61,137 nt of DNA from Escherichia Stx1-converting recombinant phage HUN/2013: sequence record KJ909655.1; one strand, 5' to 3'. The first letter of the stretch is position 1. Each line of letters begins with the position of its first letter. Positions 36,001-39,000 of this stretch are shown one piece after another. Position numbers: made by a program.

Positions 36001-39000
36001 CGCGTTCAGTACCTGCTTAGAAAGTTCAAAAAACTCGGCATGATTGACTGGGTTTCACACGGTAAATTCTCAGTTTTCTCGGTAGAGAAATATGACGATT
36101 ATCAGTCAAATTTTGTACCAGCAGATTACCAGCAAATTACCACCTCAAAGCCAGCAATACCAATGCCTGCAAGCAATACTGTACCAGCAGATTACCAGCA
36201 AATTACCACAGATAAAGAATATAATAATATTATCTCTAATACTGACGTATTAGAGAGTGCCACAGCAGACAAAAAGTCTGACAAGAAAAAACCTTCCGTT
36301 AGCTGTCAGGATGTTGTCGATGCTTACCACGAAATCCTTCCTGAAGCGCCAAAAATCCGCGCACTGAATGACAAGCGTAAAAACCAGATCCGAACGTTCT
36401 GGCGCAAAGCCGGAGTGATAACCCGCCAGCTTGACGGGCATGGGTTCACGATGCAGGACTGGAGAAATTATTTGAGCTACGTAGGCGAAAATTGCCGATG
36501 GATGTTCGAAGAGCGCCCAAACCATCAGCGCGGAACCGTCTGGCACAAAAAGGGATTTGATTTCCTGCTTAACGATAATACCTACCTGAAAGTTCGTGAG
36601 GGTGAACACGATGACCGATAATTTTTATGCGCCGCCCCATAGCATCGAGGCAGAGCAGGCGGTGATTGGTGGATTGCTTCTGGATGATGACAGCAGTGAG
36701 CGCGTCCAGAAAGTTCTGGCGATGCTGAAGCCTGATTCATTTTACAGCCGACCACACAAAATCATTTTCGAAGAAATAACCAGAATGCACCGGGAGCAAA
36801 AGCCAGTAGATGGCCTGACGCTTTTCGATGAACTGGAGCGTAAATCGTTAACGGCGTCTGTTGGCGGTTTTGCTTATATCGCTGAGATCGCAAAGAACAC
36901 GCCAAGCGCAGCAAACATCGTTGCCTATGCAATGCAGGTTCGTGAAACCGCAATGGAACGCTACGCCATCAACCGCATGACTGAAGCGACGGAATTGCTC
37001 TATTCCCGCAACGGAATGACTGCAACGCAGAAGTACGAAGCTATTCAGGCGATTTTCACGCAACTGACAGACCATGCAAAAACCGGATCGCGTCGCGGCC
37101 TTCGCTCATTTGGCGAGGTCATGGAAGACTGGGTTAGCGACCTTGAGAAGCGATTTGACCCGTCAGGCGAACAACGAGGAATGAGCACAGGGATCCCATC
37201 GCTGGACAGGATGCTGTCACCGAAAGGTCTGGTGAAAGGCTCTCTGTTTGTCATTGGCGCTCGCCCTAAGATGGGGAAAACGACGCTATACAGCCAGATG
37301 GCAATCAATTGCGCAGTGCATGAGAAAAAGCCCGCTCTGATGTTCAGCCTTGAAATGCCAGGTGATCAGATACTGGAAAAACTGGTAGGACAGAAGTCAG
37401 GTGTTAACCCGAATATTTTTTACCTTCCGGCGACAAATGACGCCGATGACGGCTATCAGGGTGATTACGATGGTGACTTCAACAGGGCGATCGAAACAGC
37501 TAATCGCTTGAGTGAAATCGACCTGCTTTACATCGACGACACGCCGGGATTATCTCTGGCTCAAATCGTCAGCGAAAGCCGTCGAATCAAACGAGAAAAA
37601 GGATGCGTTGGCATGATTCTGGTCGATTACCTGACACTAATGACCGCTGAGAAGGCCGATCGCAACGACCTTGCTTACGGCATGATCACCAAAGGACTGA
37701 AGAACCTTGCCAAAGAGCTTGATTGCGTTGTTGTGCTTCTGACGCAGCTTAACCGCGCACTGGAAAGCCGAACCAATAAACGCCCACTACCAAGTGACTC
37801 ACGAGATACAGGGCAGATTGAACAGGATTGCGATTATTGGGTGGGGATCCATCGTGAAGGTGCTTTTGATGACAGTGTTCCACCTGGTGAAACCGAACTA
37901 ATCCTTCGTCTCAATCGTCATGGCAATACCGGCACGGTGTATTGCATTCAGGCAAATGGCGCTATTTATGACACAGACCAACAGTCTGCTGAAATGCGCC
38001 GACGTGAACGCGAGGAACCGCAGTCCAAGAAGAAAGGAGGATTCTGATGAATAAAAAACAATTAGCCATTCTCGAAAAGGCATGGGATGCACAAATATCA
38101 TACGCTTTGAAAGAACAGGCACTACCAATAATCCAGACCAAATCGAAAATAGCCAGGCAGTTATGCGATGGCGGATTCCTGAACGAAATTGAGATTACGC
38201 GCCAGATGGTAACGTTTAAAGGGTATGAGATAAATCATCATGGTATAGCGGCGTATTGCTCCCATCTTCCTGATGACGTTGACATTGATGAAATGGAAAG
38301 GGAGATGAAGCAATGACCATCTACATCACTGAGCTAATAACAGGCCTGCTGGTAATCGCAGGCCTTTTTATTTGGGGGAGAGGGAAGTGAACGATAGCTA
38401 CCGACAGTTTGAAAACTGGTGGTCAAAAGACAAAAGCCAGTTCACGGGAGACGATGAATTAAAAGAGTTTGCCTGGGTGATATGGCAGGCATCGCGCTCT
38501 GCTATTGAACTGGATATCGACTGGCCCGAATCGAATGACGACTTTTGGAAAGATGGTGAAGAAGGTGCTTATGCGATGGGTTATGAGGATGGGCGTGACA
38601 AAACGGTAATTGCAGTAATGAAAGCCATCAGGGCCGCAGGAATCAAAGAAAAGAATTTCGATTAAGCAAATATCACTTCAATAAATCGCTTTTAAGGCAT
38701 CACAATCGCTCTGTAGCGAGGTAAACGCGTGCAAGGCATGCCAATAAGCAGCGAGAATGAAAAATGCGTCAGAATGTGTTTGAGGAGGTTTTAAGAAATG
38801 AGTACGATAGCTGAGCTTGTCAGGGCTAATTTTCGTGAAGAGTTGGTGCGTTGGTATCGGTATCGTTCATCGTCCAGTTTGCCGCTTGATGAGTTGTATG
38901 AGCATTCACCTGCCGCACGACGCTATCCGCGTGACCGTGTTCTTCGACGGTTGTTCAAACTCAACAATGAGTTTCAGCGCAACAGAATTATCCGGAGTCT

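Follow-up and report, generated by a model that had tools for sequence, protein, structure and literature searches.

The replication region of Escherichia Shiga toxin 1 (Stx1)-converting recombinant phage HUN/2013 was analysed within a stretch of 61,137 nucleotides (sequence record KJ909655.1), referred to here as the window. In its early region lies a gene for an O-like replication initiator (35722-36621, + strand), whose 299-amino-acid product matches phrog_345 ('replication initiation O-like') with an E value of 7e-88. Three successive elements occupy the middle of this gene and are considered here as a putative replication origin: two clusters of short direct repeats (iterons), a tract rich in A+T, and a perfect inverted repeat. 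The next gene downstream, the 'P' of HK022 and VT2-Sakai, encodes a DnaB-family replicative helicase (36611-38047, + strand); its ATG at 36611, the start used in AP000422.1 (position 13940 of that record), overlaps the stop codon of the O-like gene (36619-36621). The helicase gene product has the Pfam DnaB N-terminal (6e-32) and C-terminal (DnaB_C, 3e-60) domains, and scores 585.9 bits with TIGR03600 (phage_DnaB), for which the cut-off is 498.65.

Repeats, A+T-rich tract and inverted repeat in the O-like gene

Sequence inspection and a repeat finder located an exact 30-base-pair (bp) direct repeat, TGTACCAGCAGATTACCAGCAAATTACCAC, at 36114-36143 and 36180-36209, the starts of the two copies being 66 bp (6 x 11) apart. 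An earlier note on this DNA had placed the repeat correctly but given its length as 29 bp, and had taken its unit to be the heptamer ATTACCA; all four heptamers are indeed present on the + strand (at 36125, 36136, 36191 and 36202, which is half of the eight occurrences in the window), but the true unit is an 11-bp iteron, present in six copies as two triplets. The period of 11 bp was returned by Tandem Repeats Finder, and the homologues agree with it; each cluster holds three units, GTACCAGCAGA, TTACCAGCAAA and one that contains TTACCAC. In cluster 1 (36114-36147, + strand) these are 36115-36125 (GTACCAGCAGA), 36126-36136 (TTACCAGCAAA) and 36137-36147 (TTACCACCTCA), and in cluster 2 (36180-36209, + strand), an exact copy of cluster 1, they are 36181-36191, 36192-36202 and 36203-36209 (plus flank), with a spacer at 36148-36179 (+ strand) between the clusters. 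A 16-mer, TACCAGCARATTACCA, occurs in four copies at the iteron site, and its sole other match in the window requires three mismatches; shuffled sequences gave 0.62 matches to it, and none of 100 shuffles reached five. The 11-bp units are direct repeats devoid of internal dyad symmetry, which rules out reading the iterons as lambda-like dyad-symmetric dimer sites.

The repeat encodes the peptide VPADYQQITT twice within the open reading frame 35722-36621, as had been noted before, and the one 11-bp motif is translated in three frames (as V-P, Y-Q and I-T-T), giving three different peptides. Since 11 bp do not make a whole number of codons, a block of three iterons (33 bp) is the minimum that leaves the frame intact, and only changes of 33 bp or 66 bp keep the frame of O. 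This constraint fits the organisation in triplets as well as the existence of natural variants that differ by whole 66-bp blocks: a single block is found in a 277-amino-acid protein (L050, from IMG/VR), three blocks in L048 (also from IMG/VR) and in 26 distinct proteins of 321 amino acids (P0002-P0027), and four blocks in a protein of 343 amino acids (P0001). The 321-amino-acid form, with its three 66-bp blocks, is present in many E. coli genomes.

The clusters are followed by an A+T-rich tract (36210-36232; 23 bp, AGATAAAGAATATAATAATATTA) that is 91% A+T, is A-rich on the + strand, and may be a DNA unwinding element; the AT-rich segment previously reported after the repeats is thus borne out. 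The 40-mer 36200-36239 is 17.5% G+C, compared with 49.7% for the window, and falls within the lowest 0.1% of the window's 40-mers. A promoter scan of both strands from 35200 to 36800 found no promoter-like site, and the tract is thus not accounted for by an internal promoter. At the right edge of the tract, the repeat finder and DNA folding identified a feature absent from the earlier note, a perfect inverted repeat (36233-36256) composed of 10-bp arms, TCTCTAATAC and GTATTAGAGA, and a 4-nucleotide loop, TGAC.

The AlphaFold2 (AF2) model of the O-like protein was built from a shallow 6-sequence alignment and is moderately confident (mean predicted local distance difference test score, pLDDT, 67.8). 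It has two confident domains, at residues about 30-128 and 191-295, and between them residues 130-190, with pLDDT values of 27-37, are predicted to be disordered. The disordered residues are encoded by 36109-36291, so that the whole putative origin lies within linker-coding DNA. On one side of it, 35797-36105 (+ strand) encodes the N-terminal domain (residues about 26-128), which has a winged-helix fold in the predicted model and is a candidate for the iteron-binding module; on the other side, 36292-36618 (+ strand) encodes the C-terminal domain (residues about 191-299; pLDDT 74-90), a candidate for the helicase-recruiting module. Sequence searches of the PDB with the O-like protein and with a 15-sequence profile gave no meaningful match, and searches of Pfam and NCBIfam gave only a sub-threshold match to DUF7376.

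Conservation and exchange among homologous genes

Homologous genes gathered from GenBank phages, IMG/VR and GTDB genomes supplied 104 distinct mid-gene regions, mostly from Enterobacterales; an additional profile search returned mostly near-identical E. coli proteins. Every one of the 104 regions has two iteron triplets (3+3) with 11-bp phasing and, at the same position in all homologues, an A+T tract; a perfect inverted repeat of 9-10 bp with the loop TAAC, TGAC or TAAA is present in all except one that is N-masked. In 98 of the regions the best spacing between direct repeats is 66 bp, and in the other six it is 55 or 44 bp, likewise multiples of 11.

Synonymous conservation was measured as pairwise differences among codons of which the amino acid is conserved, with 20,000 permutations per class of iteron core. 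Synonymous differences in the TACCAGC class were 0.033 inside the iterons versus 0.313 outside, and those in two other classes were 0.021 versus 0.185 and 0.07 versus 0.50; in each of the three classes, none of the 20,000 permutations reached the observed value. Synonymous sites are conserved about tenfold better inside the iterons than in the rest of the gene. The sequence of the inter-cluster spacer is almost free to vary among relatives and its length is held, which keeps the cluster starts 66 bp apart. This combination of synonymous conservation in the iterons with a freely varying spacer of fixed length indicates that the DNA, rather than the peptide, is under selection. It is scarcely credible, then, that the repeat is a mere duplication in a disordered linker, generated by unequal crossing-over and tolerated or selected as peptide with no function of the DNA. 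That explanation would suit the predicted disorder of the encoded segment and the occurrence of one to four blocks in nature, as expected of slippage-prone coding repeats, but the synonymous test excludes it in practice; moreover, reading of the 11-bp unit in three frames makes three peptides of one DNA motif, the inter-cluster peptide varies freely with its length fixed to the base, and the 11-bp phasing is kept across classes that have different cores.

The iteron cores of the various classes are TACCAGC, TGTCCAACG, TGTCCAGCC, TGCCAAC, TTACCAAC, AATCCAA, TGTCCGG and GGCCAAC, and the core tracks the identity of the N-domain, not that of the C-domain. Thus, the initiators of Sf6 and the window share 44% identity in the N-domain and 99% in the C-domain, and the iterons differ; other homologues (L057-L060) are about 80% identical in the N-domain and about 53% identical in the C-domain, and the iterons are identical. 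DNA identity of about 45% between the window and Sf6 gives way to 100% at codon 171, within the A+T tract, which marks a mosaic junction. The C-domain has also been exchanged independently of the N-domain and iterons: in Erwinia phage Eho59 and at several genomic loci, an N-domain and iteron layout of the window type are joined to the C-terminus of lambda O (70% identical, E value 6e-63). The gene downstream of these chimeras is lambda P (Pfam PF06992), and the gene downstream of those with a C-domain of the window type encodes a DnaB-like helicase. The natural chimeras and their partner genes therefore indicate that the N-domain and the iterons constitute a specificity unit, and that the C-domain goes with the partner.

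The inverted repeat was compared in 31 distinct variants, which comprise 14 distinct stems around a conserved loop, T(A/G)A(C/A). Both sides have changed in all ten of the pairs, 97.1% of cells are paired (as opposed to 30-49% with the register slid), and the inner nine pairs of the stem are 100% Watson-Crick, with no G-T pair. The offset of the hairpin from the conserved KYDDYQ codons is constant among relatives. To judge by these sequences, the covariation favours a structure or symmetry required on both DNA strands over an RNA hairpin. The inverted repeat might otherwise act as RNA, either as a weak leftward intrinsic terminator or as a structure in mRNA, and not as a DNA element of the origin: a pattern scan finds it terminator-like on the minus strand, where the 10-bp stem is followed by TAATATTATT, and the record of phage L has automatic 'terminator' features at the homologous place. 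Such a role is unlikely, given that G-C pairs number only three in the stem and the tail mixes A and T with no U-run, that the promoter scan described above was blank on either strand, that RNA helices usually tolerate wobble, yet the inner nine pairs are free of G-U in 31 variants, and that the origins of lambda and P22 have an analogous inverted repeat in the corresponding position. An Rfam scan at gathering thresholds gave no match in the interval 35-37 kb. A tentative suggestion is that the palindrome could be a required DNA hairpin or cruciform of this class of origins, for example an entry or priming site for the DnaB-like helicase of the phage, instead of a passive feature. The strictly covarying palindrome with its conserved loop is the only detail for which no description in this class was found.

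In a distant O homologue from Prevotella sp. oral taxon 376 (L139), the site that corresponds to the iterons is taken up by at least seven tandem copies of a 12-bp unit, ACAAATGAGCAA, and an A+T-rich stretch comes next. Origins placed in the linker may thus occur well outside Enterobacterales, built on a repeat of another period.

The putative origin and its proposed mechanism

The segment 36114-36256 is very probably the replication origin of a lambdoid module of the HK022/phage L type, embedded in the linker-coding part of its own initiator gene. An origin had been proposed here in the earlier note, and that reading gains support from the selection on the DNA, from the association of the iterons with the N-domain, and from the labels 'ori iteron 1' and 'ori iteron 2' that the same bases bear in VT2-Sakai. 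In the mechanism envisaged, the winged-helix N-domain of the O-like protein would bind the six 11-bp direct repeats, with the core (G/T)TACCA(G/C)C; the members of a triplet being one helical turn apart and the triplets six turns (66 bp) apart, all sites would lie on one face of the DNA, and an O-some-like complex could form. Stress from this nucleoprotein complex would open the adjacent 23-bp tract. The C-domain would then recruit the DnaB-family helicase that the phage itself encodes in the next, overlapping gene, and no loader of the lambda P type would be involved. The 10-bp inverted repeat may serve the origin as a conserved DNA-level structure; as a hairpin or cruciform, it might mark the limit of unwinding or ease the entry of the helicase. 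The replication module works in live phage.

Plasmid iterons serve both initiation and control. The repeats might likewise be O-binding sites with a regulatory role (autoregulation, control of copy number by handcuffing, or a transcription roadblock) in a phage of which replication starts elsewhere, and the comparative data prove selection on the DNA and its link to the N-domain, not origin firing. A regulatory role of this kind is nonetheless decidedly unlikely: beside the repeats in every homologue is an A+T tract with G+C in the lowest 0.1%, as in the experimentally defined lambda origin; no further iteron cluster turned up in a copy search over the 61 kb, and the interval 26871-44249 is devoid of DnaA boxes; and, according to passages of PMC8022706 that cite genetic work, the replication regions of P22 and L can be swapped only whole, which places the origin inside the region. 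A DnaA-dependent origin was also considered, and was ruled out by the lack of DnaA boxes near the replication module.

Several points weigh against the interpretation of 36114-36256 as an origin that functions in the manner proposed. The literature yielded no experiment on origin firing, O binding or unwinding in this class of iterons, and all public annotations are worded as 'putative'. The transfer of the mechanism from lambda to this initiator rests on analogy, not on sequence similarity: BLASTP found no match between the O-like protein of the window and lambda O, and Pfam Phage_rep_O (PF04492), which lambda O matches with an E value of 5.7e-36, does not match the O-like protein at E<=0.01. 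What resembles lambda is thus the architecture. Direct repeats of 11 bp may be bound in a different mode and stoichiometry from inverted repeats of 19 bp. As for the palindrome, its minus strand fits a weak terminator-like pattern, and the hairpin of each relative was located by a search for the best inverted repeat, a procedure that favours pairing. The likeness to lambda ori drawn in the earlier note accordingly survives in the order of elements, their orientation and the mid-gene site, but not in the initiator, which is no sequence relative of lambda O; the identification of the partner as a DnaB-family helicase, and not a lambda P-type loader, was right.

Replication of Stx prophages after induction amplifies the toxin genes, and knowledge of the origin and its initiator is thus of practical relevance. 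The HK022-type module is common to VT2-Sakai/Sp5 and to Stx1 and Stx2 phages of O157:H7, and is annotated by analogy only. The experimental study of Stx-phage origins that was found (PMC7466680) dealt with the lambda-type origin of 933W and P27, and no experimental mapping of an origin of the HK022, L or Sakai type was found in the literature. The comparative data predict that the 11-bp unit is the binding site, that the N-domain sets specificity, that the 66-bp phasing matters, and that the covarying palindrome is functional. They leave the accepted picture unchanged, and the finding is correct but ordinary: the origin interpretation is already known, having been annotated for these very bases and described for the family, always as putative.

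Surrounding genes and related replication modules

The setting is a lambdoid early-right operon, with the order cI-like repressor (34126-34827, - strand), cro, cII (35254-35550), orf48 (35583-35729, + strand), O-like gene and DnaB-family helicase gene. The product of orf48 belongs to DUF2740 (Pfam E value 8.9e-29), and the gene overlaps the start of the initiator gene; it is called 'HK022 Orf48' in AP000422.1 and orf48 in P22 and phage L, and is typical of replication regions of the HK022/P22 type. It is conserved in HK022, P22, L and others, and the label 'tail protein' that it carries in PHROG and RefSeq is an apparent mis-annotation, given its position in a replication module. The DNA of the O-like gene is 100% identical to that of Stx1-converting phage (AP005153 / NC_004913), AP000422.1 (VT2-Sakai) and the PA-series Stx2 phages of O157:H7, and 99.9% identical to that of NC_000902 (VT2-Sakai) and Stx2 phage II; the protein shares 98.7% of its residues with HK022 O, and 65-66% with its counterparts in phages L and Sf6. 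Positions 1-24000 of the window are a 100% match to Stx1-converting phage.

Other features of the window were noted in passing. An antisense open reading frame of 119 amino acids within the O-like gene (36250-36609, - strand), listed as 'hypothetical protein ORF b66' in NC_004913, is probably a spurious call. The end of cII holds a strong terminator-like hairpin on the minus strand (35499-35526), which, together with 35558-35590, suggests an oop-like antisense RNA opposite the 3' end of cII. Rfam matches above gathering scores at 40390-40588 (+ strand) comprise c4-a1b1 targets, isrK and C4 antisense RNA; these suggest a P1/P7-like control element for immunity or antirepressor based on c4 antisense RNA, just downstream of the nin region. 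Further Rfam matches above gathering scores, at 19932-20106 (- strand), 22728-22816 (- strand), 31122-31180 (- strand) and 45207-45416 (+ strand), are to sok, sRNA-Xcc1, the lambda cIII thermoregulator and STnc100; the match to sok antitoxin RNA implies a toxin-antitoxin locus of the hok/sok type. Many Stx2 phages have tRNA genes upstream of stx; ARAGORN found no tRNA gene in the 61-kb window.

Among the known systems is RepA of staphylococcal multiresistance plasmids (RepA_N / DnaD-like initiators, PDB 4pta), which was compared by fold and layout only; it has no significant sequence similarity to the O-like protein, and its hosts and partners are different. Lambda is alike in that the initiator gene O holds ori in its interdomain linker, in the same orientation, with iterons, A-rich tract and inverted repeat in the same order: four dyad-symmetric iterons of 18-19 bp, a 40-bp A-rich tract, and then a 12-bp inverted repeat, GTCAGAGAATTC tggc GAATCCTCTGAC (L012, 563-590). 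The lambda iterons are inverted repeats bound by O dimers, however, whereas those of the window are 11-bp direct repeats; lambda O has the Pfam Phage_rep_O domain and recruits host DnaB through the P loader (PF06992), whereas the module of the window has a phage-encoded DnaB-family helicase. Features that define the lambda type strictly, namely a Phage_rep_O N-domain, inverted-repeat iterons of ~19 bp and a P loader, are therefore missing from the window, and the linker location and order of elements are shared. It is established that the N-domain of lambda O sets origin specificity and the C-domain sets partner specificity (PMC7466680), which is the same arrangement as that of the module studied here.

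P22 also has its ori inside the initiator gene, gene 18, with orf48 upstream and a DnaB-like helicase gene (12) downstream, and the C-terminal domains of the two initiators are distantly related: only the C-terminal 144 amino acids of P22 gp18 and the O-like protein align, with 25% identity and an E value of 1e-4. The P22 ori has the same tripartite order as that of the window, namely four 20-bp iterons, an A-rich tract, and CCCCC TAAA GGGGG. The loop of this inverted repeat, TAAA (L141, 960-985), is that of part of the HK022/L class. The differences are that the P22 iterons are present in four copies of 20 nucleotides and are dyad-symmetric (TTTACC..ATCGGTAAA), and that the N-domain has no detectable similarity to the window protein; neither the four dyad-symmetric iterons of ~20 bp nor the P22 gp18-type N-domain that strictly define the gene 18 origin are found in the window.

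The closest systems already carry annotations at this site. In AP000422.1, 'ori iteron 1' (13443-13472) and 'ori iteron 2' (13509-13538) are both entered as bound by O, and these correspond to 36114-36143 and 36180-36209 of the window; the Sf6 record has a rep_origin at the homologous place, said to be similar to that of HK620, and the phage L record has a 'putative origin of replication' there. Six 11-bp repeats have been described for phage L (PMC8022706). Phages L and Sf6 have a homologous initiator (gp18 in L, gene 43 in Sf6) whose six 11-bp repeats likewise form two triplets at a distance of 66 bp; they also share with the window the A+T tract, the inverted repeat and a partner that is a DnaB-like helicase, and differ in the iteron core (TGTCCAACG as opposed to TACCAGC in the window) and in an N-domain only 44-58% identical to that of the window, next to C-domains that are 93-99% identical. 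HK022 and VT2-Sakai (Sp5) have essentially the same element as the window, with iterons that are identical save for one base in HK022 and the same gene order of orf48, O and DnaB-like P; the VT2-Sakai annotation treats each 30-bp block as one iteron, for which the 11-bp unit is a better description. With a homologous initiator, 3+3 iterons of 11 bp and an A+T tract in the middle of its gene, an overlapping helicase gene, and orf48, the window has a replication module of the HK022/phage L/Sf6 type.

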